Source: a virus (lineage: Duplodnaviria; Heunggongvirae; Uroviricota; Caudoviricetes). Taken from it: a stretch of 54,013 nt of DNA. The stretch is taken from IMG/VR virus record IMGVR_UViG_2778261162_000003. One strand, written 5' to 3'. The notes beneath the pieces were generated by a model. That model saw only the letters and a program-made list of their open reading frames with translations. It made no database searches and had not been told where the DNA came from. Both the position numbers and the translations under genes were made by a program. This document shows, piece after piece, positions 4,840 through 51,429 of the stretch (its first letter is position 1; each line of letters begins with the position of its first letter).

Positions 4840-5379
4840 ATGCAACCACTTACATACCAACAGACTAGCGGATTTAGCCCGACTGCGGTGATAAATCGTT
4901 CTCAAACAAAACAGGTGCCAGGCCACGAAAAAATCCGTGATGCCGTCCGCGCCTGGTCGGCTGAAGATAATCAGGATGTCGTTGCCGCACTCATTGTGAA
5001 TGAGTATCGAGCACAGGGCGGCGGCACTATCGATTTTTCTGATGATGTCAGTCGTGCACGCCAGAAGCTGTTCCGCTTTCTCGATAACAAATTCGATTCT
5101 GAAAAATACCGAAATAACGTGCGTGAACTGACTCCAGCAATTCTGGCAGTACTACCGCTGAAATATCGCGGCCACCTGGTTGAGCAGGATAGCTTCATGG
5201 CTCGGCTGGCTGAAATGGAAAAGGAACTCAGTGAGGCAAAACAGGCTGTCATTCTCAACGCACCACGCCACCAGAAACTGAAGGAAATTAGTGAAGGTAT
5301 TGTGTCGATGTTTCGTGTGGACCCAGATCTGGCTGGTCCATTGATGGCGATGGTTACTACCATGCTGGGGGCGATATGA
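4840..5379 (+). CDS. CII-like regulatory protein (possibly phage 186 CII/CP76 family)
   Basis: 179-aa ORF in the cII position between cro and O; family assignment from recollection only. Confidence 0.4.
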   Translation: MQPLTYQQTSGFSPTAVINRSQTKQVPGHEKIRDAVRAWSAEDNQDVVAALIVNEYRAQGGGTIDFSDDVSRARQKLFRFLDNKFDSEKYRNNVRELTPAILAVLPLKYRGHLVEQDSFMARLAEMEKELSEAKQAVILNAPRHQKLKEISEGIVSMFRVDPDLAGPLMAMVTTMLGAI

Positions 5380-5465
5380 CAGGTTCAGAAATGGCGAAAG
5401 CCGGTCTGCTGGAACAGAACCGACTTTCAGGTGCAAATCGTAACACACTCATTGCGGGAGGAATT

Positions 5466-6395
5466 ATGGCAAACACTGCTGAGATATTCAATTTTCCAGT
5501 GCCGGATGCGGCACAAAAGGAGCCGCGCGTGGCAGATCTCGATGATGGTTATACGCGCATTGCAAATGAGTTGCTGGAAGCTGTGATGCTGGCCGGATTA
5601 ACACAGCACCAGCTTCTGGTCTTCCTAGCTGTCATGCGCAAAACATATGGCTTTAATAAAAAACTGGATTGGGTGAGCAACGAGCAACTGTCCGAATTGA
5701 CCGGGATATTGCCGCACAAGTGTTCTGCTGCAAAAAGTGTTCTGGTAAAGCGTGGGATTTTGATTCAGAGCGGGCGGAATATCGGTATTAATAATGTGGT
5801 CAGTGAATGGTCAACATTACCCGAATCAGGTAAGAAAAATAAAGTTTACCTGAAAGAGGTAAATTTACCTGAATCAGGTAAGAAAAGTTTACCCAAATCA
5901 GGTAAAGGCGTTTACCCGAATCAGGTAAACACAAAAGACAAACTAACAAAAGACAATATAAAACCTTTTTCGTCCGAGAATTCTGGCGAATCCTCTGACC
6001 AACCAGAAAACGATCTTCCTGTGGTGAAACCAGATGCTGCAATTCAGAGCGGCAGCAAGTGGGGGACAGCAGAAGACCTGACCGCCGCAGAGTGGATGTT
6101 TGACATGGTGAAGACCATCGCGCCATCAGCCAGAAAACCGAATTTTGCAGGGTGGGCTAACGATATCCGCCTGATGCGTGAACGTGACGGACGTAACCAC
6201 CGCGACATGTGTGTGCTGTTCCGCTGGGCATGCCAGGACAACTTCTGGTCCGGTAACGTGCTAAGTCCGGCCAAACTCCGCGACAAGTGGACCCAACTCG
6301 AAATCAACCGTAACAAGCAACAGGCAGGCGTGACAGCTAGCAAACCAAAACTCGACCTGACAAACACAGACTGGATTTACGGGGTGGATCTATGA
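5466..6395 (+). CDS. O: Replication initiator O
   Basis: C-terminal about 130 aa near-identical to lambda O (SENSGESSDQPENDL...TNTDWIYGVDL); divergent N-terminal iteron-binding domain; start at MANTAEIF preceded by GGAGG; ori iterons inside the gene. Confidence 0.85.
   Translation: MANTAEIFNFPVPDAAQKEPRVADLDDGYTRIANELLEAVMLAGLTQHQLLVFLAVMRKTYGFNKKLDWVSNEQLSELTGILPHKCSAAKSVLVKRGILIQSGRNIGINNVVSEWSTLPESGKKNKVYLKEVNLPESGKKSLPKSGKGVYPNQVNTKDKLTKDNIKPFSSENSGESSDQPENDLPVVKPDAAIQSGSKWGTAEDLTAAEWMFDMVKTIAPSARKPNFAGWANDIRLMRERDGRNHRDMCVLFRWACQDNFWSGNVLSPAKLRDKWTQLEINRNKQQAGVTASKPKLDLTNTDWIYGVDL
5817..5965 (+). repeat. Replication origin: four roughly 18-bp iterons plus an AT-rich segment inside O
   Basis: Direct repeats TTTACC(C/T)(G/A)AATCAGGTAA at 5817-5833, 5864-5882, 5888-5906, 5911-5929, followed by AT-rich sequence; lambda ori-like organisation. 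Confidence 0.8.
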
Positions 6396-7093
6396 AAAAC
6401 ATCGCCGCACAGATGATTAACTTTGACCGTGAGCAGATGCGTCGGATCGCCAACAACATGCCGGAACAGTACGACGAAAAGCCTCAGGTACAGCAGGTAG
6501 CGCAGATCATCAATGGTGTGTTCAGCCAGTTACTGGCAACTTTCCCGGCGAGCCTGGCTAACCGTGACCAGAATGAACTGAACGAAATCCGCCGCCAGTG
6601 GGTTCTGGCTTTCCGGGAAAACGGGATCACCACAATGGAACAGGTTAACGCTGGAATGCGCGTAGCCCGTCGGCAGAATCGACCATTTCTGCCATCACCC
6701 GGGCAGTTTGTTGCATGGTGCCGGGAAGAAGCATCCGTTATCGCCGGACTGCCAAACGTCAGCGAGCTGGTTGATATGGTTTACGAGTATTGCCGGAAGC
6801 GAGGCCTGTATCCGGATGCGGAGTCTTATCCGTGGAAATCAAACGCGCACTACTGGCTGGTTACCAACCTGTATCAGAACATGCGGGCCAATGCGCTTAC
6901 TGATGCGGAATTACGCCGTAAGGCCGCAGATGAGCTTGTCCATATGACTGCGAGAATTAACCGTGGTGAGGCGATCCCTGAACCAGTAAAACAACTTCCT
7001 GTTATGGGCGGTAGACCTCTAAATCGTGCACAGGCTCTGGCGAAGATCGCAGAAATTAAAGCTAAGTTCGGACTGAAAGGAGCAAGTGTATGA
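6392..7093 (+). CDS. P: Replication protein P (DnaB helicase loader)
   Basis: 233 aa, near-identical to recalled lambda P. Confidence 0.95.
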   Translation: MKNIAAQMINFDREQMRRIANNMPEQYDEKPQVQQVAQIINGVFSQLLATFPASLANRDQNELNEIRRQWVLAFRENGITTMEQVNAGMRVARRQNRPFLPSPGQFVAWCREEASVIAGLPNVSELVDMVYEYCRKRGLYPDAESYPWKSNAHYWLVTNLYQNMRANALTDAELRRKAADELVHMTARINRGEAIPEPVKQLPVMGGRPLNRAQALAKIAEIKAKFGLKGASV

Positions 7094-7392
7094 CGGGCAA
7101 AGAGGCAATTATTCATTACCTGGGGACGCATAAGAGCTTCTGTGCACAGGACGTTGCCGCGGTAACAGGCGCAACCGTAACCAGCATAAATCAGGCTGCG
7201 GCTAAAATGGCGCGGGCAGGAATCCTGGTCGTTGATGGTAAGGTCTGGCGAACGGTGTATTACCGGTTCGCTACCAGAGAAGAACGGGAAGGAAAGGTGA
7301 GCACGAATCTGATTTTTAAGGAGTGTCGCCAGAGTGCCGCGATGAAACGCGTATTGAGGGTATATAAAAGAACATCAATGGGTACACAATGA
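7090..7392 (+). CDS. ren: Ren (Rex exclusion relief protein)
   Basis: MTGKEAIIHYLGTH... matches lambda Ren / K-12 RenD. Confidence 0.85.
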   Translation: MTGKEAIIHYLGTHKSFCAQDVAAVTGATVTSINQAAAKMARAGILVVDGKVWRTVYYRFATREEREGKVSTNLIFKECRQSAAMKRVLRVYKRTSMGTQ

Positions 7393-7459
7393 TGAAACAG
7401 GTGAGTTGATTTCAAACTGTAGTACAATTCTCTCCAGTTTGAACAGGAAAGAATATGCT

Positions 7460-7792
7460 ATGAACCCTTATATTTATCTTGGTGGTGCAATACTTGCAGA
7501 GGTCATTGGTACAACCTTAATGAAGTTTTCAGAAGGTTTTACACGGTTATGGCCATCTGTTGGTACAATTATTTGTTATTGTGCATCATTCTGGTTATTA
7601 GCTCAGACGCTGGCTTATATTCCTACAGGGATTGCTTATGCTATCTGGTCAGGAGTCGGTATTGTCCTGATTAGCTTACTGTCATGGGGATTTTTCGGCC
7701 AACGGCTGGACCTGCCAGCCATTATAGGCATGATGTTGATTTGTGCCGGTGTGTTGGTTATTAATTTATTGTCACGAAGCACACCACATTAA
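7460..7792 (+). CDS. emrE: Small multidrug resistance efflux transporter EmrE
   Basis: 110 aa from MNPYIYLGGAILAEVIGTTLMKFSEGF..., matches E. coli EmrE; conserved Glu14. Confidence 0.95.
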   Translation: MNPYIYLGGAILAEVIGTTLMKFSEGFTRLWPSVGTIICYCASFWLLAQTLAYIPTGIAYAIWSGVGIVLISLLSWGFFGQRLDLPAIIGMMLICAGVLVINLLSRSTPH

Positions 7793-8048
7793 AAATAATT
7801 TGTTTCTAAACGACTAAAATATGGAGGCTCTTATATTTATATGAGCCTCGTTTTATGCTTTTTGTTAATGTCTTTATTTTTTTATGTATTCTTTTGTGCT
7901 TTCAAGATTATGGCGTAAGAAAATTGCAATACGATTATTGTTGTATATTCAAGATAATGTGACCTTAATTGTCTTTTTAAATAAAAATTAAACAAAAATT
8001 ATATCTCACCACTAAGGTTTATAGAAGCATACGTTAGCAGGTGTCACC

Positions 8049-9575
8049 ATGAAAAAAGCCATAGCATATATGCGATTTTCATCACCAGGTCAGATGTCTG
8101 GCGACTCATTAAACCGACAGAGAAGACTTATTGCTGAATGGTTAAAGGTAAATAGTGATTATTATCTTGATACCATAACATATGAAGATTTAGGATTAAG
8201 TGCATTCAAAGGAAAGCATGCACAATCAGGAGCTTTTTCGGAATTTTTAGATGCTATAGAGCATGGTTATATATTGCCAGGAACTACATTGTTAGTTGAA
8301 AGTCTGGACAGACTTTCAAGAGAAAAAGTCGGTGAAGCGATTGAGCGTCTGAAATTGATTTTGAATCACGGTATTGATGTTATAACTCTTTGCGATAATA
8401 CAGTCTATAATATTGACTCTTTGAATGATCCATATTCATTAATAAAAGCCATACTTATAGCACAAAGGGCAAATGAAGAAAGCGAGATAAAGTCAAGTCG
8501 GGTTAAATTATCATGGAAGAAAAAACGGCAGGATGCACTGGAGTCAGGCACGATTATGACGGCGTCTTGTCCGAGATGGCTCTCCTTAGATGACAAAAGA
8601 ACGGCTTTTGTTCCAGACCCCGACAGGGTGAAAACTATTGAGCTAATTTTTAAACTCAGGATGGAAAGGCGCTCATTGAATGCAATAGCCAAGTATTTAA
8701 ATGATCATGCTGTAAAGAATTTCTCAGGAAAAGAAAGTGCATGGGGACCTTCTGTAATTGAAAAATTATTAGCGAATAAAGCTCTGATAGGTATATGCGT
8801 ACCTTCATATCGTGCAAGAGGTAAAGGAATAAGTGAAATCGCTGGCTATTATCCCAGAGTCATATCAGATGATTTGTTTTACGCTGTGCAGGAAATTCGG
8901 TTGGCACCTTTTGGTATTAGCAATAGTAGCAAAAACCCTATGTTGATAAATCTACTTCGAACAGTTATGAAGTGCGAGGCTTGTGGTAATACCATGATTG
9001 TTCATGCGGTATCTGGAAGTTTGCATGGCTATTATGTTTGTCCGATGAGAAGACTGCATCGATGTGACAGGCCATCAATAAAGAGAGATTTGGTTGATTA
9101 TAATATCATTAATGAGTTGCTTTTTAATTGTAGTAAAATCCAACCAGTTGAAAACAAGAAAGATGCTAATGAAACTTTAGAGTTGAAAATTATTGAGCTC
9201 CAGATGAAAATTAATAATTTAATTGCTGCATTATCTGTTGCGCCTGAAGTTACCGCTATAGCAGAAAAAATCAGAGTATTAGATAAGGAATTACGAAGGG
9301 CTTCTGTATCATTAAAAACTTTGAAGAGTAAAGCGGTGAGCTCACTTGGTGATTTTCATGCTATTGACTTAACCAGTAAAAATGGGCGAGAGCTATGTCG
9401 TACACTTGCCTATAAAACATTCGAAAAAATCATAATCAATACAGATAATAAAACCTGTGATATCTATTTTATGAATGGCATTGTTTTTAAACACTATCCT
9501 TTAATGAAAACAATATCCGCCCAGCAGGCGATAAGTACTCTCAAATATATGGTTGATGGTGAGGTTTATTTTTGA
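8049..9575 (+). CDS. ybcK: Large serine recombinase (YbcK-like)
   Basis: 508 aa; N-terminal resolvase-like catalytic domain (AYMRFSSPGQ, active-site Ser); Cys-rich recombinase zinc-ribbon; AT-rich codon usage. Confidence 0.85.
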   Translation: MKKAIAYMRFSSPGQMSGDSLNRQRRLIAEWLKVNSDYYLDTITYEDLGLSAFKGKHAQSGAFSEFLDAIEHGYILPGTTLLVESLDRLSREKVGEAIERLKLILNHGIDVITLCDNTVYNIDSLNDPYSLIKAILIAQRANEESEIKSSRVKLSWKKKRQDALESGTIMTASCPRWLSLDDKRTAFVPDPDRVKTIELIFKLRMERRSLNAIAKYLNDHAVKNFSGKESAWGPSVIEKLLANKALIGICVPSYRARGKGISEIAGYYPRVISDDLFYAVQEIRLAPFGISNSSKNPMLINLLRTVMKCEACGNTMIVHAVSGSLHGYYVCPMRRLHRCDRPSIKRDLVDYNIINELLFNCSKIQPVENKKDANETLELKIIELQMKINNLIAALSVAPEVTAIAEKIRVLDKELRRASVSLKTLKSKAVSSLGDFHAIDLTSKNGRELCRTLAYKTFEKIIINTDNKTCDIYFMNGIVFKHYPLMKTISAQQAISTLKYMVDGEVYF

Positions 9576-37050: not shown

Positions 37051-37061
37051 GTGGGGTGAAT

Positions 37062-39890
37062 ATGGCAGTAAAGATTTCAGGTGTACTGAAAGACGGCACA
37101 GGAAAACCGGTACAGAACTGCACAATCCAGCTGAAAGCAAAACGTAACAGTACCACGGTGGTGGTGAACACGCTGGCCTCAGAAAATCCGGATGAAGCCG
37201 GGCGTTACAGCATGGACGTTGAGTACGGTCAGTACAGCGTTATTCTGTTGGTGGAAGGATTCCCGCCGTCACATGCCGGGACCATCACCGTGTATGAAGA
37301 TTCCCGACCCGGTACGCTGAATGATTTTCTCGGTGCCATGACGGAGGATGATGCCCGTCCTGAGGCACTGCGCCGTTTTGAACTGATGGTGGAAGAGGTG
37401 GCGCGTAACGCGTCCGCGGTGGCACAGAACACGGCAGCCGCGAAGAAGTCAGCCAGCGATGCCAGCACATCAGCCCGTGAGGCGGCAACCCATGCGACTG
37501 ATGCTGCAGGCTCAGCACGCGCAGCCAGCACGTCAGCCGGACAGGCTGCTTCGTCGGCTCAGTCAGCGTCTTCCAGCGCAGGAACGGCATCAACAAAGGC
37601 CACTGAAGCATTAAAAAGTGCTGCCGCTGCAGAGTCCTCAAAAAGCGCGGCGGCTACCAGTGCCGGTGCGGCGAAAACGTCAGAAACGAATGCGGCAGCG
37701 TCACAACAATCAGCAGCCACTTCTGCATCCGCCGCGACCACGAAGGCGTCAGAAGCAGCCACCTCAGCCCGGGATGCGGCGGCCTCAAAAGAGGCAGCGA
37801 AATCATCAGAAACGAACGCATCATCAAGCGCCAGTAGTGCCGCTTCCTCGGCAACGGCGGCAGGCAATTCCGCGAAGGCGGCAAAGACGTCTGAGACAAA
37901 CGCCAGGTCTTCTGAAACGGCAGCGGGACAGAGCGCCTCGGCTGCGGCAGGCTCAAAAACAGCGGCTGCGTCGTCTGCCAGTGCCGCGTCAACAAGTGCC
38001 GGGCAGGCCTCAGCCAGTGCCACCGCCGCCGGAAAATCGGCAGAAAGCGCCGCATCATCCGCTTCAACAGCCACAACGAAGGCTGGCGAAGCCACTGAAC
38101 AGGCCAGCGCAGCAGCGAGGTCTGCTTCCGCAGCGAAGACATCCGAAACGAACGCGAAAGCGTCGGAAACCAGCGCAGAATCCTCAAAAACGGCTGCCGC
38201 ATCGTCCGCCAGTTCGGCGGCGTCATCGGCATCATCTGCGTCTGCTTCAAAAGATGAGGCGACCAGACAGGCGTCAGCAGCGAGGGGCAGCGCCACGACG
38301 GCATCCACGAAGGCGACAGAGGCTGCTGGCAGTGCGGCAGCGGCAGCACAGAGCAAAAGTACGGCGGAATCCGCGGCAACGCGCGCCGAGACAGCAGCAA
38401 AACGGGCAGAGGATATTGCATCCGCCGTGGCGCTTGAGGATGCGAGCACGACGAAAAAGGGGATAGTACAGCTCAGCAGTGCGACTAACAGCACTTCCGA
38501 GTCACAGGCGGCAACGCCAAAAGCCGTTAAGGCCGCGTATGACCTGGCTAACGGGAAATACACCGCACAGGACGCTACGACAGCACAAAAAGGAATTGTC
38601 CAGCTCAGTAGTGCAACCAACAGCACATCTGAAACGCTTGCTGCGACACCGAAAGCAGTGAAAGCAGCTAATGACAATGCGAATGGTCGGGTACCTTCTG
38701 CCCGTAAGGTGAATGGTAAGGCGCTTTCAGCGGATATAACACTGACGCCGAAAGATATTGGTACGCTTAACTCAACAACAATGTCATTCAGCGGTGGTGC
38801 TGGTTGGTTCAAATTAGCAACGGTAACCATGCCACAGGCGAGTTCTGTTGTTTCAATTACGTTGATTGGTGGCGCTGGATTTAACGTGGGGTCACCTCAA
38901 CAGGCAGGTATATCTGAACTTGTTTTACGTGCAGGTAATGGTAATCCGAAGGGGATTACTGGTGCTTTATGGCAGCGCACATCGACAGGGTTTACAAATT
39001 TTGCCTGGGTCAATACATCTGGTGATACTTACGATATTTACGTTGCAATCGGAAATTATGCGACTGGTGTAAATATTCAATGGGATTATACCAGTAATGC
39101 CAGCGTGACGATTCATACGTCACCAGCATATTCTGCTAATAAGCCGGAAGGGTTAACGGACGGTACAGTTTATTCACTCTATACGCCATCAGAGCAGTTT
39201 TATCCGCCTGGCGCACCAATCCCGTGGCCATCAGATACCGTTCCGTCTGGCTATGCCCTGATGCAGGGGCAGACTTTTGACAAATCTGCATACCCGAAAC
39301 TTGCAGCCGCTTATCCGTCAGGCGTGATCCCTGATATGCGTGGCTGGACGATTAAGGGCAAACCTGCCAGTGGTCGGGCCGTATTGTCTCAGGAACAGGA
39401 CGGCATTAAATCGCATACCCACAGCGCCAGCGCATCCAGTACGGATTTGGGGACGAAAACCACATCGTCGTTTGATTACGGCACTAAATCCACGAATAAC
39501 ACTGGTGCGCATACCCATAGTTTAAGTGGCAGCACGAATGCAGCTGGTAATCACAGCCATAGAGATGGCCGTCGATTTAACCCCAGTGTTTTTAAAGATA
39601 CTTATCAATATGGTTATACAAGCTCAGGTCAAAATACCTGGGGTGTACAAGGCTCAGTAGGTATGTCTACGGGGTGGTTAGCGAATACCAGTACAGATGG
39701 TAATCATAGCCATTCACTGTCCGGCACAGCAGCATCTGCAGGTGCACACGCGCATACTGTCGGTATTGGTGCTCATACGCACTCCGTTGCGATTGGTTCA
39801 CATGGACACACCATCACCGTTAACGCTGCTGGTAACGCGGAAAACACCGTCAAAAACATCGCATTTAACTATATTGTGAGGCTTGCATAA
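37062..39890 (+). CDS. stf: Side tail fiber protein Stf (full length)
   Basis: N-terminal 110 aa match lambda Stf ([27 protein letters not shown]...); long Ala/Ser/Thr-rich repeat region; C-terminal domain with repeated His-x-His motifs ([42 protein letters not shown]). Confidence 0.9.
37400..38470 (+). repeat. Low-complexity Ala/Ser/Thr-rich coding repeat inside stf
   Basis: Iterated SAxSAxxAAT/KTSETNA units at protein level; GC-rich repetitive DNA producing long spurious ORFs on other frames and the opposite strand. Confidence 0.8.
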
Positions 39891-40465
39891 TGGCATTCAG
39901 AATGAGTGAACAACCACGGACCATAAAAATTTATAATCTGCTGGCCGGAACTAATGAATTTATTGGTGAAGGTGACGCATATATTCCGCCTCATACAGGT
40001 CTGCCAGCAAACAGTACCGATATTGCACCACCAGATATTCCTGCTGGCTTTGTGGCTGTTTTCAACAGTGATAAGGCATCGTGGCATCTTGTTGAAGACC
40101 ATCGGGGTAAAACGGTTTATGACGTAGCGTCAGGGGACGCGTTATTTATTTCTGAACTCGGTCCGTTACCGGAAAATGTTACCTGGTTATCGCCGGAAGG
40201 GGAGTTTCAGAAGTGGAACGGCACAGCCTGGGTGAAAGATGCAGAAGCAGAAAAACTGTTCCGGATCCGAGAGGCGGAAGAAACAAAAAACAGCCTGATG
40301 CAGGTAGCCAGTGAGCATATTGCGCCACTTCAGGATGCTGTAGATCTGGAAATCGCAACGGAGGAAGAAACCTCATTGCTGGAAGCCTGGAAAAAGTATC
40401 GGGTGTTGCTGAACCGTGTTGATACGTCAACTGCACAGGATATTGAATGGCCAGCACTGCCGTAG
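39890..40465 (+). CDS. tfa: Tail fiber assembly protein Tfa
   Basis: 191 aa; start overlaps the stf stop (TAATG); matches lambda Tfa family. Confidence 0.9.
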
Positions 40466-40562: not shown

Positions 40563-41153
40563 TTATATGTCAGGTGTCTGAAGTTTTGCTTTGGCTCTTA
40601 AAATGGTTTGCCGCGAGGTTTTGAATTCCCGGGCAATGGCACTTATACTTACACCTGACTTAATTCGTTCGAATACCACCTGTTTCTGTTCTTCATTTAA
40701 CACAGGTGGTCGACCAAAACGTTTCCCTGCGCCGCGGGCTCTTACTATCCCGGAATGAGTGCGTTCAAGTAAAAGGTCTCGTTCAAATTCAGCGACTGCT
40801 GAAATTACGTGCATCATCATTTTTCCTGTTGGACTGGTCAGGTCAATGCCCCCCAATGCTAAGCAATGCACTCTGATACCTGTTTCGGTCAGTTGTTCCA
40901 CTGTTTTCCTGATATCCATTGCATTACAACCAAGGCGATCCAGTTTTGTCACAATCAATTGATCACCACATTTCAGGCGAGCAAGCAACCGGTTAAAACC
41001 AGGACGCTCACTGGTTGCTGCTGAGCCGCTAATGTGTTCTTCGATTATTTGCTGAGGTTTGATTTTAAAACCTGCACTTTCGATTTCCCGGCGTTGATTT
41101 TCGATGGTCTGATCCAGCGTTGATATCCGACAGTAAGCAAAAATTCGAGACAT
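40563..41153 (-). CDS. pin: Pin/Gin/Hin/Cin-family serine DNA invertase
   Basis: 196 aa; N-terminal [15 protein letters not shown] with active-site Ser; C-terminal HTH; immediately follows tfa in convergent orientation. Confidence 0.9.
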
Positions 41154-41469: not shown

Positions 41470-41736
41470 TTACATTTTACCATTTAAATTTTGGTTGTCT
41501 TTAAGAACTGATATCGCTGTTTGTAATAATTCTTTGTTATCCAGCCATGATTTTTTCTTTATGTTTCCTTCAATGTAATCAAGCAATGTTCTGGTATTGA
41601 TAGGTCTTCCCTGTTTTGCTACTTCCACTACAGCATCCCCTAGGATAATTCTTACTTCAGGAAGCTGCGCAGGGAACCACTTTAGGGTGTCTTTTGATTT
41701 CATGAAGATATTCCTTAAAATATTATTGATTTTCAT
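41470..41736 (-). CDS. Hypothetical protein
   Basis: 88-aa ORF in AT-rich cargo region; no recognised similarity. Confidence 0.35.
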   Translation of the reverse strand: MKINNILRNIFMKSKDTLKWFPAQLPEVRIILGDAVVEVAKQGRPINTRTLLDYIEGNIKKKSWLDNKELLQTAISVLKDNQNLNGKM

Positions 41737-42204: not shown

Positions 42205-42243
42205 AAAAACCGCAGACACGCCTTATGCAAGAACGTGCTGCGG
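42205..42243 (-). terminator. Putative rho-independent terminator of the methyltransferase gene
   Basis: Inverted repeat CCGCAGACACG...CGTGCTGCGG followed on the minus strand by a U-run, directly downstream of the stop at 42251. Confidence 0.5.
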
Positions 42244-42250
42244 TTGGATG

Positions 42251-42919
42251 CTATTTTTTCCCTGAAGCGGAAAACATTACTACAGTACCTTGAACCTTGG
42301 TTTTAACATTCTCGAAATGCTCTGAGAGTATATGTGTTAAGCCTTCTTCGGAATCTTTTGTGTTTGAAAAGATGCCTTTCTGATTGTAAATGCGCATCAG
42401 TTTTTGACCGAAGCTATTGTGCACAACTCCATCGCCAAGAATTGTGGCTCCGTATAGAGTTCCATCGTCAGTTAAGGCCTGCGCCGCATTGCGTATTACA
42501 CAGCTTTTTGTAGATATATTTCCAGGCAGGCAGTGAAGAAGGTAAAACATGGAAATGGAATCAAATTGACCATGTAACGCCGCGGGATAAGGTTCAAAAA
42601 CATCATGGTTAATTTTATGTTTAATTTTTGATTCCCCAGCCCTTGTAGATGCCGCGTTCAGGCTAGCTTCGTTCAAATCCATTAAAGATATCAGACTACT
42701 CTCAGGTACGTGAGTAAGGTAAAACCCAGTTCCAACACCAATATCCAGATGGTTGTTACCTAAATGTTCCAGAAAGTGTGGAAGAAGGTGTTCCTTTGTA
42801 GGACATCCCCATGCAAGCCGATTTGATACTCCCAAAACCCACCAGTCATAAAGCTTTAGGGTAAGTGGTGTGTAAATTTTAGCCCCATCATCTGTGTTTT
42901 TTTTCATTAATTTCACCAT
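42251..42919 (-). CDS. ybcY: Class I SAM-dependent methyltransferase (YbcY-like), apparently intact
   Basis: 222 aa; SAM-binding motif LDIGVGTGF; AT-rich; position corresponds to K-12 ybcY. Confidence 0.7.
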   Translation of the reverse strand: MVKLMKKNTDDGAKIYTPLTLKLYDWWVLGVSNRLAWGCPTKEHLLPHFLEHLGNNHLDIGVGTGFYLTHVPESSLISLMDLNEASLNAASTRAGESKIKHKINHDVFEPYPAALHGQFDSISMFYLLHCLPGNISTKSCVIRNAAQALTDDGTLYGATILGDGVVHNSFGQKLMRIYNQKGIFSNTKDSEEGLTHILSEHFENVKTKVQGTVVMFSASGKK

Positions 42920-42975
42920 GTTATAGTTTTATTTGTGAATTAAATCAATTATGGCGATGAATTACAAGGGGTTAA

Positions 42976-43281
42976 ATGCTGCCGCAGCATAGCGATATTG
43001 AAATAGCCTGGTATGCTTCGATACAGCAGGAGCCGAATGGCTGGAAGACCGTCACCACACAGTTCTACATCCAGGAATTCAGTGAGTATATTGCGCCACT
43101 GCAGGATGCTGTAGATCTGGAAATCGCAACGGAGGAAGAAAGATCGTTGCTGGAGGCATGGAATAAATATCGGGTATTGTTGAATCGAGTTGATACATCA
43201 GTAGCTCTGGGTATGAAGCTGTTTGTAACTCATGTTACAGTAACAGTCATTACTATCTCGAAGGTGCAAAATGTATATTGA
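42976..43281 (+). pseudogene. Tail fiber assembly gene fragment (tfaX-like 3' remnant)
   Basis: ORF contains [37 protein letters not shown], near-identical to the Tfa C-terminus; about 120 nt of DNA similarity to 40318-40440; no Tfa N-terminal part. Confidence 0.75.
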
Positions 43282-43464
43282 TTTGATATTTTATAAATTT
43301 ACTTCGAATCTGGCACGTCAACTTTTGATTAAAGTAATATCAGTTTTCGGCGAAAAAAGGACCGTGTACATGAGACGATTTCATACAATAATAACAAAAA
43401 TATGAATATGCTCCCAATGCAATATATGTTTTGCATTGGGAGCAAATAGCGGAATATTTTGAAA

Positions 43465-44949
43465 TTATTGTATTTCTGCTTCAGAATTTCCTGGGCAGTA
43501 TATATTTTCTATTTTTTGTGGAGTGATCAGGTAATGTACAACTGCTTTATCTACACATAAATTAACTCCGGTGAGAGCTAATGTATGCCCATCACCATTT
43601 ATTGTTAGTAACGGGCTGGAAAATTTCTCTGCCATCTTACGGGCATTAATCCAGGGCGTTGTTGGGTCGTATTTGTGTGCTACAAACAGTAAACCAGAGG
43701 GCAGAACAGTATTTTTCAGGCGAGTTTTGTTCAGGTCGCTATGTATTGGCCATAATTCACAAAAATCAGGTGAATCGGAACGTCCATTGTCAAAGTTAAT
43801 AGCCGGGAAGGCATTCGCAAGAGCGTCTTTTCGGGATTTTCGCTCTTCTGGTGTTAATTGCTCATCCCCCTGATCTACACAGAGGATTACCCCCGAAGCA
43901 TCGCTTGACTCTTCTGAGGCTATCGGAGCACTGAGCGCAGTTTCAATTTCATTACTGACAATCCCCTGAGAGAACTGGCGTATGGCAGTTGCAAGGGTTG
44001 GCCATGATGAACGCCATAGCAGAAGGTCTGTTGTTAATGATATGAGTTCATCTGAAGATATATTTTCTCCCTTACTGTCTAATAAAGGTTTGTGATGTAA
44101 TTTTGATAATAGCTCATGGAACTGAGTTATTGCCTTATCTCTGTCTGAAGAAAGCGGGCAACTTTTTGTACGCGCACACCAGGATGCAAAGCGATCAAAC
44201 GTTTCCTGATAACTCTGTGCCTGTTTGAGTTGCCATGTGAAGTTGTCCTCCAGGTCATCGATATCGACGACTCCATCAAGAACGATAGATCTTACGTTGT
44301 AGGGAAAACGTTCTGCATATAAGGCTGCAATTTGAGTTCCATACGAATACGCCACGGCTGTCAGTTGTTTATCCCCCAAGGCTTGCCTAATACGATCAAT
44401 ATCGTATACAGCCTCGTTAGAGCCGATATGGCGAATGACTTCGGCTCCGGTATTATGGATACAGGCATTAATTTTATTTAATACTTGTTGCTTTTCGGTT
44501 ATGTTTTCCTGAGTCTCTGTATCTGATTGCCGGCAGTTTATTGTCGGAGTGGACTGTCCGACGCCTCGAGGATCAAATCCAATAATATCCCATGACTCAC
44601 GAAGATTTGTGACTGGCCAGTCAAAGTTAATATAAGGATTTATGCCTGGTAACCCGGGACCACCACTTATTATCAGGATACTTCCTTTATGCTTGCTTTT
44701 TGCCGGCAATTTTGTCAACGCTAGTTTGACTTGTGATTTTTTTTCATAAGAAGCATCTCCGCCTGTGTCTGTATATTTTAATGGAACAGACAAATAACCA
44801 CATAGTAAGTCAGGAGACGGTTTTTCCTCACCAAACCAGTGGTTGAATTGACTGGCCATACAGGATTGCCACTGTATCTGCTGGGCAGATACGGTTACTG
44901 GTAGAAGTAACGTTAAAACAACTTTGAAATGAGTGATTATTTTTCGCAT
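43465..44949 (-). CDS. Secreted alpha/beta-hydrolase, S33 (TAP/tripeptidyl aminopeptidase-like) family
   Basis: 494 aa; signal peptide; oxyanion-hole-like ISGGPGLPG; nucleophile elbow AYSYGT (x-S-x-G); family assignment from motifs only. Confidence 0.6.
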   Translation of the reverse strand: MRKIITHFKVVLTLLLPVTVSAQQIQWQSCMASQFNHWFGEEKPSPDLLCGYLSVPLKYTDTGGDASYEKKSQVKLALTKLPAKSKHKGSILIISGGPGLPGINPYINFDWPVTNLRESWDIIGFDPRGVGQSTPTINCRQSDTETQENITEKQQVLNKINACIHNTGAEVIRHIGSNEAVYDIDRIRQALGDKQLTAVAYSYGTQIAALYAERFPYNVRSIVLDGVVDIDDLEDNFTWQLKQAQSYQETFDRFASWCARTKSCPLSSDRDKAITQFHELLSKLHHKPLLDSKGENISSDELISLTTDLLLWRSSWPTLATAIRQFSQGIVSNEIETALSAPIASEESSDASGVILCVDQGDEQLTPEERKSRKDALANAFPAINFDNGRSDSPDFCELWPIHSDLNKTRLKNTVLPSGLLFVAHKYDPTTPWINARKMAEKFSSPLLTINGDGHTLALTGVNLCVDKAVVHYLITPQKIENIYCPGNSEAEIQ

Positions 44950-45135
44950 TGTGTCTCTGAATATCGGAATAAAGATAAGATTTGAATATATTGAGGTCTT
45001 GTGTTGCGGTAAGAGATTACACGTTATGACATAGGTTAAATGCTTACAAAATTAGTGGATATTGCCTACTTGTAACTGTAAACAAATTCCCCGGGGTTAT
45101 ACAATACCACCGGGGAGAAAATCTGGTTAACTTCG

Positions 45136-46089
45136 TTAAAAGGTGTACTTAAGACCAGCAGTAGTGATGAAGTTATAGTTTTCTATGCCTGCACCATTTT
45201 TGCTGTAGTCTGAAGTGTTATCATTGTGATCATAAAGTGAAGTATTACCTTTTTTATTCGTAACCCGATTCCATGCGCCTTCAACATAAACTTTTGCGTT
45301 AGGTGTTACGTAATAACCTGCATTGACTGCAACAGAATAGTAATTTTGGTCTTTGACTTTACTGCGATAAGTGATTCTTTTTCCTGGGTCATAGTGCTCA
45401 TCGTTATCAGATGCTTCCACCCAGCCGCTGTATTTAAATGTGCCACCTAGCTCAAAATCTTCATAACGATAACTTCCAGTCAAGCCAATGTAGGGCATTT
45501 TAAAACGTTGTTTGTAGCCGATTGCTCTTTCTCCATTCGGGAAGGAGCCGATATCATCTCTGAATCCCTCCTCAGAACTGTAGATATAGGAACCACCTCT
45601 GGCTGTAAAGCTATAACGGCTTTCCTGATATCCGGCCATGAGTCCCAGGCGGTAATTGGGTTCGTTGAGGAGCCAGCCTTTGATATTCAGATCAAATTCG
45701 TTGGCATAATTGAGTTGTGTATCAGGGTGCCTACTTTCATCTGTCCAGGTTCCGGGGTTACTGGAATCCATCCAGTCCTGATCGACCATATTGCCACCTC
45801 GGCTGCCGAGAGTAGTCCAGCCCGCAGCCCCAATAGATATCTGGGGCATCAAATCCCAATTAATTGCACCTTTAATAATTGCAGCGTTATTGAATTTCCA
45901 GTCGAGTTGACTGACTTTTCGGCCTCCTTCTTCAGCTAGATAAACGCGCTCTTTTGTTTTTCCGCTCAGAGTTCCAAGACTAATGTCCGCATTTATGTTG
46001 TCAGGAGTAAACGATATAGTCTCGGTAGAAGCAAAAGAGCTGATCGCAATAGGGGTTGTCAGAACTATTCCCAGAAGTTTCGCCCGCAT
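45136..46089 (-). CDS. ompT: Outer membrane protease OmpT (omptin)
   Basis: 317 aa, matches E. coli OmpT (MRAKLLGIVLTTPIAISSFA...TAGLKYTF). Confidence 0.95.
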   Translation of the reverse strand: MRAKLLGIVLTTPIAISSFASTETISFTPDNINADISLGTLSGKTKERVYLAEEGGRKVSQLDWKFNNAAIIKGAINWDLMPQISIGAAGWTTLGSRGGNMVDQDWMDSSNPGTWTDESRHPDTQLNYANEFDLNIKGWLLNEPNYRLGLMAGYQESRYSFTARGGSYIYSSEEGFRDDIGSFPNGERAIGYKQRFKMPYIGLTGSYRYEDFELGGTFKYSGWVEASDNDEHYDPGKRITYRSKVKDQNYYSVAVNAGYYVTPNAKVYVEGAWNRVTNKKGNTSLYDHNDNTSDYSKNGAGIENYNFITTAGLKYTF

Positions 46090-46511
46090 AAAAGTTCTCC
46101 ATTCAATCGTTTTAATGATTGAATATGTATTTTTTATATCTAACTTAATGAGTCAATCACATATTGCTCCACTGTTTATATTTTGTTTAGTATTGAATGA
46201 TTATCACAATGCGCTATCTGTTTTTGGTTTAATTATCTGTTATTGTTTTATGTTGCGGTTTTACTGTGTGGTTTTTTATGCTTTTGTGGTGTTTTTATCT
46301 ATTTAAGCGCCATGCCTTTAAAGGCATATAAGCGAAAATAGCATGAGGTTTATCCTCAATTGCTATGTTTTTTAGTACAAAAAAGAGGGACAAAACTGAG
46401 ACACATAAGGCCTCACAATGGCTTGCAAGGCTTTACATGTTTTGAGGTAGTGGGACGTGTGAGCGCAGAGATGGCGCGGTAATTTGTTGACTTAAAATGT
46501 CGTTCTAGGAA

Positions 46512-46556
46512 CTTCTAAGTCGTGGGCCGCAGGTTCGAATCCTGCAGGGCGCGCCA
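46512..46556 (+). pseudogene. pauD: Partial tRNA-Arg(UCU) 3' segment (pauD-like); probable prophage attR core
   Basis: CTTCTAAGTCGTGGGCCGCAGGTTCGAATCCTGCAGGGCGCGCCA equals the anticodon-loop-to-CCA part of argU tRNA; no 5' half present. Confidence 0.8.
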
Positions 46557-46601
46557 TTTCTTCTTCATTTATGCCCGTCTTATCCGTTTCCGCTTTGCCC
46601 T

Positions 46602-48436: not shown

Positions 48437-51429
48437 TTACCAGTGCACTCCAATGGTGAGAAACGCGTTGTTGCGCTCTCCGTTACGTTGATTAATCGCC
48501 TTAAAGGTATGTTGATACTCGACGCCGAGACTGACTTTGTGCGGCCAGGCGTCGTAGTGCGTCTCGCCGGTCCAGATATTCCAGCGGACCCCGACTCCGC
48601 CAAGCTGCGCGCCCTGAGTGCCTTTATCACGATAGCCGTTGTCCTGAACGTGAGCGTAAGGCTCAATAGTCTGTCCGTTAGCTACCTTCTGATGCCAGCT
48701 GACGCGATAATCTGCCGTCCACGCCTGAATATCCTGGCGGATATATTGCGCCGCATCGAGGTACAGGTTTTGGGCAAACCAGCCTGAACCGTTCGGGTGC
48801 CATTCGTCGCTGTATTTGCCGCCATTAAAGAATGAGGCGCTGGCGCGCAGCATGGTATCGGATGCGCCATTTTGCCCGTTCAGCGGCAACTGCTGTTCGA
48901 CGGCGAGGAAAAAGATCTGATCGCGCAGCGGCTTCCAGCGCAGACCGGTGCCGGACATCGGATTTTTCACCGGCATCATCACCCCGTTTTCTCCGGTATC
49001 GGCAAAGACGCGGCTATAAACTGAGAGCAGGTCGCCTTCCAGCAGCATATTGCGTCCGATGCGGTACTCGGCTTCCAGTTGCCCGTAGCTACGATAGCTT
49101 TTCCCTGGCGCTGCGCCGCCGACATTATTGTTAGCGGTGCTCATTGCCCCGGAACGCAAGCCGATAGAAGAATCGAAACTGAACGTCCAGCGGCGACCGA
49201 CCTCCTCATGCAAACGGCGGAAATTGAAGCGTTGCTGATTTTGCTCTGGGGTCAGTGGGGTTATCAGCGCCTGATTATCAATGTCATCAATCACCAGCCG
49301 GGCGTAGTGCTGCGTCGCAGGCATGTCATCCAGACGCTGGTTCACGTAGGCCAGTTGTCGGATCAGTGCCGGATCGTCCGGAAGCCCTTTATGCGCCTGT
49401 TCGAGCATTTCCCGCGACTGTGCGATATCACCGCTATCCCACAAGGCGTAACCAAGCGCTGCCTGGATGTTGCTATTATTCGGTTCCAGTTCCAGCGCGG
49501 CGCGCAAATCACTCACCGCCGCCGGGACATTATGACGTTGGCGATAAATTGTCGCCCGCGCAACGTAAGCGTTGGCAGAAGGCGCAATATTGATTGAGCG
49601 CGTGAGATCGCTCAGTGCGAGTTCCGGCTGACCAGGAATGTAACGTTGCGCATGCAGCCACCAGTAGAGGGCATTGTTTCCCAGTCCACGTTGTTCTGCC
49701 TGTTGTAGCCAGCGATCGCGAGCTGCACCATTTCCTGCCGCCTGGGCGGTATTGGCAGCAGCAAGCAGATCCTCATTGCTCATGTCGTGAAGACTGATTT
49801 TCTGCCAGGCCGCCAGTGCGGTGGCGTAGTCCTCAACCTGATACGCCTGATAGGCTACCGCACGATGTTGCCAGGCGTTCGGTTGTCGTTGTTCGGCCTG
49901 AAGCCATGCATACAGCGCCACACCGGGTAGCGTGTCCCGATAACACTTTGCCAGACGGTTCCAGGCGGCAGCATCGTAGGAAGGCGACATATCGCCCAGC
50001 AAGCGAACTATTGCCGGGCAATTATCTGCAATACCCGGCAACTGACTTTGCCACTGACGTTGCTCCGCCAGCGGTAAGGGTTTCGATAAAATCGCCACCT
50101 TCGCCGGCGTTGCCAGGTAAGGATGACTTTCCAGCAGAGACGCCAGTCGCGCCATTAAAGTCTGGCTGACACGCGCATCGCCCTGGAAAGGATAGCGTTG
50201 CAGCAATAAATCGGCAGCTTCGCGTGACTGCTCGTTCTGCATCAGTTGCCAGGTCAGTTGATCCAGGCGGGTAAGATTTGCCGGTTCTTGCTGATACAGC
50301 AATCGTGCCAGACGCAGAGATTCAGCCTTGTTACGGGCGCCACGCTGACAGCATAACGCTCCTCAAGCATTTCATTGGCGGGGAGGGTGGCGAGCAGTTT
50401 TTGCGCTGCGTCGTACTGACCTTCTTTTAACAGCACCGGTAGCGTCGCGCCAACAACATACTGGCGGTTATCGGCAAACTGCACCGTATAATTCGCCAAT
50501 GCCTGAACGGGGTTGGCGCTGTATTTAGATAACAGATAGAGCCAACTTTTCTCTTGTGCGTCCGTGGTAAACAGCGGCTTATTTTCATTGAGATAATGCT
50601 GGAGGCGTGCTTTTTCGCCACGATAAGCCAGCGCGGTCGCGTAAGTAATATATGACTGAGGATCGGTGAAGATCCCCTGTGATTGCAGTGCCAGGATCCG
50701 ATCGTCCAGCTGCCCGGCAAGAAGCACGTCAAACCACTGACGGCGTTCTGCCGCGCTTAATGTGTTCTGCTGGCGTGCTTCATTGTATAGCGTATCTGCC
50801 TGGGACCATTGTTTCAGGTAGATTGCCCGTTGCAGCAGATCGGTTCGCAGCGTTTTTCCTTCTGGCGATGCAGCAAACGTCGCATCGTTCAGTTGCGCTC
50901 TGGCGACAGGTAATTGTGCCAGCCGCAGGGCATTCTGCCCGACTTCACTGCGACAACGCAGGGTCGGCGCAGCGTCGCACGCTTTTTGCTGGGCAAGCAG
51001 TTCTTCAACAGTCGTAACGCTTTTCACTTCAACCGGAATAGCCGCCAGACTGCGCTCAAGTCGGGCATCTCCTGGGTGACGTTTCAGTTGATCCTCAAGC
51101 AACAGCCGCGCCCGGTCATCATGACCAAAATGGCGATAGGCTTCCGCAAGGTATAAAGTAAGCGGAATATTATCCGGCACCTGCTGGTGTATATATTCAA
51201 ATTCGCGGATGGCGGTTGCTTCGTCGTTATTTTTCTGTGCCTTCAGCGACTTATCGAGACGGGGATAAATAACAAAATGGCGATAATCGCTCAGCCCCAG
51301 CTCTTCTGCGCTGGTGCCGATATTGTCTGCGAGTGCGCTGGTACTCAATAAAGACGTCAGCAGTAAACCAGACCATCCGATGACGCGATTAAGGTTATTC
51401 TCCTTCATTTTCGGACTCCAGTTGCGCAA
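48437..51429 (-). pseudogene. nfrA: Bacteriophage N4 adsorption outer membrane protein NfrA, split into two overlapping ORFs (frameshift or sequencing error)
   Basis: N-terminal ORF 50254-51429 (391 aa, signal peptide, TPR-like) and C-terminal ORF 48437-50302 (621 aa, ends ...AFLTIGVHW) in different frames, overlapping about 50 nt; together equal NfrA length (about 990 aa). Confidence 0.8.

Follow-up and report, generated by a model that had tools for sequence, protein, structure and literature searches.

Introduction

OmpT, an outer-membrane protease of the omptin family, serves as a standard virulence marker of Escherichia coli, degrades antimicrobial peptides and is troublesome in protein production, and Hip1 of Mycobacterium tuberculosis is an immunomodulatory protease and a tuberculosis drug target. 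Hip1 has the catalytic triad S228/D463/H490, 11 cysteines, five predicted disulfides and both protease and esterase activity (PMC4022732). It is already known that ompT lies in the prophages DLP12 of E. coli K-12 and Sp8 of O157:H7 Sakai, and the variable genes found downstream of it in uropathogenic E. coli (UPEC) isolates (appY, ybcY and one gene “186 bp downstream”) were drawn by Desloges et al. 2019 (PMC6854850). Here we analyse a 54,013-nucleotide (nt) stretch of viral DNA (IMG/VR record IMGVR_UViG_2778261162_000003; hereafter the window), a lambdoid prophage in which ompT is followed by a gene for a 494-amino-acid (aa) alpha/beta hydrolase. This gene has been annotated in thousands of genomes; in the searchable literature we found neither the kinship of the E. 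coli hydrolase with Hip1 nor its carriage by isolated phages, nor its presence on the F plasmid beside an OmpP-like omptin, nor a cassette in which omptin and hydrolase diverge together. We consider it probable that the arm of this argU prophage bears a cassette of ompT and an exported, periplasmic hydrolase of the Hip1/tripeptidyl-aminopeptidase (TAP) type as lysogenic-conversion cargo.

Results

A Hip1-like hydrolase is encoded next to ompT

The hydrolase gene (43465..44949, minus strand) encodes an S33-like alpha/beta serine hydrolase of the Hip1/TAP-like kind, as identified from its open reading frame (ORF), Pfam domains, match to Hip1, family alignment and structural model. Pfam searches returned Abhydrolase_1 (PF00561; 3e-33, 115.9 bits against a cutoff of 25.8) and, at the C-terminus, the TAP-like Abhydrolase_4 (PF08386; 6e-16, 58.9 bits, cutoff 21), and the best matches among solved structures were those of M. 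tuberculosis Hip1/CaeA, covering residues 21-475 with E values of 8e-52 to 2e-50. An AlphaFold model, built with a 15-sequence alignment (predicted local distance difference test, pLDDT, 84.9; predicted template modelling score, pTM, 0.86), shows an alpha/beta core and a helical lid at residues 230-380. The first six Foldseek matches of this model were Hip1 (template modelling scores 0.74-0.81), followed by TnmK1 and TnmK2 and then by S33 prolyl aminopeptidases.

Residues S202, D428, T431 and H455, as well as the motif G96-G97-P98-G99, are invariant in the same alignment, which reaches down to 32% identity (Mycobacterium, Nocardia), and the triad aligns with the Hip1 motifs GYSYG, HDPATP and QHT that hold S228, D463 and H490. 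The nucleophile elbow reads A-Y-S-Y-G, with Ala for the first Gly, and fits the Sm-x-S-x-G pattern. The protein contains exactly ten cysteines, all of them conserved in the family and nine aligning with cysteines of Hip1. We rejected a proline iminopeptidase proper, since the matches were partial and far below cutoff; the prolyl aminopeptidase model TIGR01249 (S33.001, NCBIfam) reached only 35.8 bits against a cutoff of 259.75, over residues 167-263. The PHROGs database labels the families of the hydrolase and of OmpT alike as “unknown function”. The S33-like family call made in the initial annotation is thus upheld, with both Pfam domains above their cutoffs, Hip1 as the closest solved relative and Ser202/Asp428/His455 all present, so that a lost triad does not speak against it. 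We assign the protein with high confidence to the Hip1/tripeptidyl-aminopeptidase branch of S33-like hydrolases, as an intact, exported and selected enzyme that lambdoid phages and plasmids carry with ompT as accessory cargo.

By eye, the N-terminus, MRKIITHFKVVLTLLLPVTVSA followed by QQ, has the basic n-region, hydrophobic core and V-x-A cleavage motif of a Sec signal peptide. The putative signal peptide corresponds to residues 1-21, with cleavage between VSA and QQ and without a lipobox cysteine, and residues 1-23 are disordered in the AlphaFold model. The hydrolase is probably exported via this peptide and likely periplasmic; we hold the periplasmic location with moderate confidence, because a Sec signal peptide in a Gram-negative cell leads there, barring a further secretion step. 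The ten cysteines would fit such an oxidising compartment. The protein had initially been described as secreted: the signal peptide agrees with export but not with true secretion, and “exported, probably periplasmic” describes it better.

The hydrolase and ompT lie in the phage's own arm

The partial tRNA at 46512..46556 (plus strand) is the 3'-terminal 45 nt of tRNA-Arg(UCU), exactly identical to positions 33-77 of K-12 argU, and the match between window and K-12 comprises the last 45 nt of that gene and zero further bases. It is the core of the right attachment site (attR) and the right end of the prophage. The window holds this 45-nt copy once, against a chance expectation of 0, and ARAGORN found no complete tRNA in it. 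The annotated DLP12 of K-12, whose last genes are ybcY (a pseudogene), tfaX, appY and ompT, starts inside argU and stops exactly at the homologous argU fragment. Positions 42210-46558 of the window are 99.75% identical to phage ev243; the match ends with the argU fragment and the phage then runs into int, and therefore ompT and the hydrolase belong to the packaged phage genome. As had been proposed from the partial tRNA-Arg, the prophage ends there, in agreement with the argU identity, the end of DLP12 in K-12 and the end of the ev243 match at 46558; ompT, the 494-aa hydrolase, a methyltransferase and an invertase all lie within this boundary, at coordinates that proved correct.

Farther left, positions 590-37406 are collinear with ev243 at 93-97% identity, with the immunity and nin regions as exceptions. 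The right 15.5 kb are 99.8% identical between the window and strain GE3, in which argU and intD are located approximately 49.8 kb to the left of the argU fragment. From the collinearity with ev243 and the placement of argU and intD in GE3, the window is evidently a nearly entire DLP12/Nesevirus-type lambdoid prophage, minus the int end only, and the hydrolase-ompT segment is by the same comparisons the att-proximal arm of the phage itself and no trapped remnant. An arrangement of tandem prophages, with ompT in the older remnant, was discarded because the window holds a single att core and isolated phages carry the segment contiguous to int.

A protein search of deposited phage genomes recovered the hydrolase, at least 99% identical, from 11 genome records of temperate coliphage isolates (ev243, 2G7b, Turner and the PhiR series), grown on K-12, E. 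coli C or ECOR13. The gene order in ev243 is tail genes, lom, tail fibre, methyltransferase, tail-fibre assembly (tfa) fragment, hydrolase, ompT, attP and int.

The slot downstream of ompT is variable in E. coli

The window and K-12 are 97-100% identical across ybcY and the beginning of tfaX; homology decays at approximately 43155-43205 inside tfaX and returns at 45086, some 50 nt past the ompT stop, and therefore the hydrolase takes the place of appY, as the initial annotation had it. We surveyed 5426 complete E. coli genomes for this interval. The hydrolase segment was present in 1254 of them (23%), with the ompT-hydrolase junction intact in 1234 and the gene full length, at 99% identity or more, in about 1230; the K-12 appY segment was found in 838 and part of ompT in 3084. 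A third state, the empty allele of UPEC-type strains, was found in the bloodstream isolate MS20645, in which a clean 1977-bp deletion removes window positions 43003-44979, that is, the tfaX fragment and the hydrolase. Its junction (positions 6846-6852 of locus L099) has a 7-nt overlap and joins ybcY to the spacer that precedes the hydrolase, and envY is absent too. Since the deleted allele keeps 156 nt of hydrolase-type spacer, it descends from a hydrolase-bearing ancestor.

The hydrolase is an accessory gene, not a core gene, and is prophage cargo; its presence in less than a quarter of the genomes, alongside appY-type and deleted alleles, confirms that this is a variable cargo position and sets aside the possibility of a common core gene. 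Its GC content is 0.42, against 0.515 for the remaining prophage. Rather than a newcomer, the hydrolase seems to be ompT's older partner, with the appY and empty states being derived. In the UPEC isolate cystitis 6, a gene named ymcE has been placed “186 bp downstream of ompT”, with no hydrolase mentioned (PMC6854850). Because 186 nt is exactly the ompT-hydrolase gap in the window, the hydrolase allele may be present in cystitis 6 under a different name.

Omptin and hydrolase genes travel as a cassette within E. coli

Beyond the prophage, close relatives of the hydrolase (76-95% identical) were located in five more settings: an iroBCDEN plasmid from a chicken isolate; the F plasmid, beside RepFIB and int, where a hydrolase 78% identical to that of the window follows, after a 92-nt spacer, an OmpP-like omptin 70% identical to OmpT; and three other plasmid-like contigs, where the cassettes are accompanied by fimbrial operons and insertion sequence (IS) elements. 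In all six cassettes an omptin gene lies immediately upstream of the hydrolase, on the same strand and with a gap of 92-190 nt. Protein sequences differ among the cassettes by up to 30% for the omptin and up to 24% for the hydrolase; the pairwise distances of the two genes run in parallel, and both genes fall into the same three groups. Nonsynonymous divergence (dN) was 0.05-0.18 for the omptin and 0.02-0.15 for the hydrolase, with synonymous divergence (dS) reaching 1 to more than 2, and dN/dS values of 0.06-0.27 and 0.11-0.22, respectively, indicate purifying selection on both genes. A CCCCGG...CCGGGG hairpin with a modest U-run opens the spacer in six of six cassettes. Three of them have 92 nt between the genes, with about 45 nt from the hairpin to the hydrolase ATG and AGGAG ahead of it, therefore leaving little room for an independent promoter. 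On plasmid F128, the omptin upstream of the hydrolase (positions 4887-5830 of locus L089) matches OmpT as two segments that differ in reading frame; the PLSDB gene table has no entry for this omptin, which is possibly frameshifted in this F' laboratory plasmid.

A pair conserved across genera was ruled out, for an omptin lay within 8 kb of the homologue in none of about 35 gammaproteobacterial loci from outside E. coli. Likewise, neither an omptin nor a shared neighbour was found near the homologues, at most 55% identical, of Yersinia thracica, Enterobacter, Salmonella, Chromobacterium and others, and clustering of the neighbouring ORFs revealed synteny only within a genus, Serratia. The linkage with an omptin is old and stable in one clade, and is neither universal nor obligatory for OmpT. 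In Serratia marcescens (positions 5001-8356 of locus L101), a 45%-identical homologue lies 240 nt upstream of, and on the same strand as, a gene for an OppA-like SBP_bac_5 peptide-binding protein; this neighbour, found in part of Serratia only, weakly hints at a peptide-related role.

A hairpin separates two genes that may be transcribed together

The ompT gene (45136..46089, minus strand) encodes a 317-aa omptin (Pfam Omptin, 3e-130; NCBIfam NF008222, 708 bits against a cutoff of 537) that is 99% identical to OmpT of K-12. None of its three substitutions is catalytic, and D103/D105/D230/H232 of the precursor, equivalent to Asp83/Asp85/Asp210/His212 in mature numbering, are intact. It lies 186 nt upstream of the hydrolase, on one strand with it. 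Directly after the ompT stop, the sequence and RNAfold reveal the GC-rich hairpin CCCCGG...CCGGGG, then AUUUGUUU (45088..45116, minus strand), which is likely a leaky terminator between the two genes; a divergent copy is also found after ompT in K-12. A second, terminator-like hairpin with a 14-bp stem and a T-rich tail was identified by a consensus scan 20 nt past the hydrolase stop (43409..43444, minus strand). Between positions 43200 and 46600 we found six consensus promoters, versus 8.8 expected from shuffled sequence, and since the scan did no better than chance we do not claim any promoter.

In a microarray study of O157:H7 Sakai, ECs1662, annotated as a hydrolase, gave a regulated signal in growing cells and shared an expression cluster with ompT; as cells entered stationary phase, the two fell by similar amounts, their log2 changes being -2.53 and -2.72, respectively (PMC2241611). 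Together, the shared hairpin, the short spacers with AGGAG, the closing terminator and the co-expression cluster in Sakai suggest that the two genes form one bicistronic unit attenuated by the hairpin, and we propose with moderate confidence that the hydrolase is co-transcribed with ompT.

Other genes of the right arm

We surveyed the region from 40.5 to 47.4 kb gene by gene. The side tail fibre gene (37056-39890, plus strand) is followed by the tail-fibre assembly gene (39890-40465, plus strand), a pin-like serine DNA invertase (40563-41153, minus strand; Pfam Resolvase 2.5e-36 and HTH_7, PHROG 125 DNA invertase), a small ydfK-like gene (approximately 41470-41703, minus strand) and an intact, ybcY-like class I S-adenosylmethionine-dependent methyltransferase of 222 aa (42251-42919, minus strand; Pfam methyltransferase domains, PHROG 2132 of unknown function). 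The methyltransferase gene is a pseudogene in K-12 and is also found in phage ev243 and in Sakai Sp8. Next comes a tfaX-like remnant of a tail-fibre assembly gene (42976..43281, plus strand; Pfam Caudo_TAP 9e-18), which forms the left edge of the variable slot. Beyond ompT lie envY, ybcH, nfrA and nfrB, with EnvY identified as AraC-type by Pfam and NCBIfam.

The 3' ends of the two tfa genes form a 146-nt direct repeat of 84% identity (40298-40443 and 43069-43214), which flanks the block of invertase, ydfK, ynaM and methyltransferase, its second copy lying within the tfaX remnant. The left breakpoints of the slot variants are located at or beside this second copy. The bracketing of the block by the repeats and the position of the breakpoints suggest that recombination between tfa genes builds the mosaic of the right arm. 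In O157:H7 (loci L003 and L098), a manganese catalase and two ferritin-like genes replace the invertase block between the tail-fibre assembly gene and the methyltransferase.

Positions 37250-38750 of the side tail fibre gene are GC-rich (0.61-0.62) and encode a repetitive sequence rich in Ala, Ser and Thr, with imperfect repeats of 26-27 nt; the long ORFs to which this segment gives rise, whether in other frames or on the complementary strand, are spurious. The nfrA gene (48437-51429) is split into two overlapping ORFs of 391 and 621 aa by an indel near 50337, where the window is one base short of GE3 (ttacggg-cgcc versus ttacgggtcgcc), reflecting either a frameshift or a sequencing error.

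Discussion

The interval is the att-proximal, non-essential arm of a lambda-like prophage in argU, a counterpart of the b region of phage lambda. It bears a two-gene cassette on one strand, formed by ompT, a GC-rich hairpin with a weak U-tail, the hydrolase 186 nt on and a putative strong terminator. The hydrolase would leave the cytoplasm through its cleavable Sec signal peptide, fold in the periplasm with about five disulfides and catalyse through Ser202-Asp428-His455. From its homology with Hip1 and the tripeptidyl aminopeptidases of Streptomyces, it would most likely cut peptides, either short N-terminal peptides or exposed protein termini, with an esterase side activity. It would be expressed in the lysogen with ompT, probably by read-through of the hairpin, and so would represent lysogenic-conversion cargo and not a virion or replication function. 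Cooperation with OmpT is conceivable, by trimming in the periplasm the fragments that OmpT makes at the surface. With low to moderate confidence we propose that the enzyme is a peptidase whose substrates are peptides arriving in the periplasm, perhaps the products of OmpT.

Several observations weigh against this picture of a coupled, peptide-cutting pair. Homologues up to 55% identical lack an omptin within 8 kb, and any conserved neighbour, in Budvicia, Yersinia, Serratia, Providencia and Pseudomonas; the omptin linkage is therefore limited to the E. coli clade and could reflect simple descent. ArlC, considered as another hydrolase-linked omptin, was discarded, its partners being Mig-14 and an epimerase. 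About 60% of the ompT-positive genomes are without the hydrolase, so OmpT does not need it. The ribosome-binding site of the hydrolase in the window is weak (AGAGA), and the ompT hairpin may terminate efficiently. No biochemical or genetic study of the hydrolase was found in the searchable literature, and at 27-30% identity homology does not reveal the substrate class, Hip1 itself having first been taken for a carboxylesterase.

The chief alternative to a peptidase is that the hydrolase is an esterase, lipase or lactonase acting on a non-peptide substrate, such as an envelope lipid, an acylated sugar or a host-derived ester. Hip1, originally reported as the carboxylesterase CaeA, is active on p-nitrophenyl butyrate; moreover, the ev243 record names the gene “putative lactone hydrolase”, the fold relatives TnmK1 and TnmK2 are non-peptidases, and the NCBIfam proline iminopeptidase models match only in part and far below cutoff. 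We nevertheless judge this unlikely, because the characterised proteins nearest to it in sequence and fold (Hip1 and, via PF08386, Streptomyces TAP) are peptidases and because both the GGPG motif and the fold matches ranking next are those of S33 prolyl aminopeptidases. A passenger without functional coupling, left beside ompT by a single joint acquisition and too close to be separated from it, has a larger claim: beyond the E. coli clade the homologues stand alone, and with appY-type and deleted alleles ompT functions in the absence of the hydrolase. Yet order, strand and hairpin have been kept through a synonymous divergence of about 1 or more, the pair has stayed together in five or more different settings flanked by IS elements on either side, and both genes are under purifying selection; we thus regard the passenger as a serious possibility, albeit not the favoured one.

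The prophage accessory arm is a place where genes for anti-phage defence or superinfection exclusion are common, and the PADLOC model PDLC01094 (“C3a206, TAP-like protein”) matches the full length of the hydrolase at 6e-57. This match reflects kinship at family level with a candidate accessory family, neither CRISPR nor defence partners were found nearby, an exported, disulfide-rich enzyme is an improbable sensor of intracellular infection, and the cassette also resides on F-type and iro plasmids without any phage; a phage-serving factor is therefore highly improbable, and as a defence system proper we discarded the hydrolase, the match being at family level only and lacking system partners. 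Even harder to credit is a decaying, functionless remnant, despite the company of the tfaX fragment and of ybcY, a pseudogene in K-12, since about 1230 copies are full length at 99% identity or more, dN/dS is 0.11-0.22 across diverged copies, the triad and the ten cysteines are conserved and a transcript was detected in Sakai (PMC2241611).

We also offer, as a speculation that we think quite unlikely to hold, that omptin and hydrolase are a co-inherited module of envelope proteolysis, spread by lambdoid phages and by F-type and virulence plasmids, in which OmpT or OmpP would cut cationic host peptides and proteins at the surface and the periplasmic hydrolase, made in smaller amounts by hairpin read-through, would finish or complement the task. 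If so, enterohaemorrhagic E. coli and other carriers that lose the hydrolase should become measurably poorer in resisting antimicrobial peptides, in envelope integrity or in colonising the gut, and the enzyme would be a Gram-negative counterpart of Hip1 in its role in M. tuberculosis. More generally, the hydrolase is a constant neighbour of ompT in about 40% of ompT-positive E. coli, O157:H7 included, and a diverged cassette exists on the F plasmid. Should the two proteins cooperate, a variable has been overlooked in studies that score ompT alone or that compare strains differing in slot allele (appY, empty or hydrolase); should they not, the gene encodes one more phage-borne periplasmic hydrolase, so far uncharacterised in the searchable literature.

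The reading of the locus as an arm cassette with a Hip1/TAP hydrolase can be set against five described systems. The hydrolase resembles Hip1 (Rv2224c, CaeA; PDB 5UGQ, 7SFM) in its full-length homology, its lid-bearing alpha/beta fold, its Ser-Asp-His triad with a Thr three residues past the Asp and its export to the cell envelope, which is predicted in our case. It differs in that identity is only about 27-30%, its host is Gram-negative, so that the compartment would be the periplasm, its elbow is A-Y-S-Y-G instead of G-Y-S-Y-G, and it is phage- or plasmid-borne beside an omptin; besides, GroEL2, the substrate of Hip1, has no obvious periplasmic counterpart. The enzymes Tap, SlpD and SlpE of Streptomyces lividans (MEROPS S33) share with it the combination of PF00561 and PF08386 and export, a likeness that derives from Pfam and from the Hip1 literature (PMC4022732).

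As for genomic context, DLP12 of K-12 shares with the window the integration site, the att core, ompT, the envY-ybcH-nfrAB flank and the ybcY and tfaX remnants, but in K-12 the place of the hydrolase is taken by the AT-rich regulator gene appY, convergent with ompT, and the prophage is defective, whereas that of the window is nearly collinear with isolated phages. Sp8 of Sakai carries ECs1662, annotated as a “hydrolase”, and ompT as ECs1663, with 99% identity and annotated within a lambda-like prophage, although it adjoins minCDE and not argU and has ISEc8 between the tfa remnant and the hydrolase. Finally, the F plasmid repeats the order of an OmpP-like omptin followed by a homologous hydrolase on the same strand, with the hairpin kept between them, but in a plasmid context, with a spacer of 92 nt and an omptin only 70% identical to OmpT.

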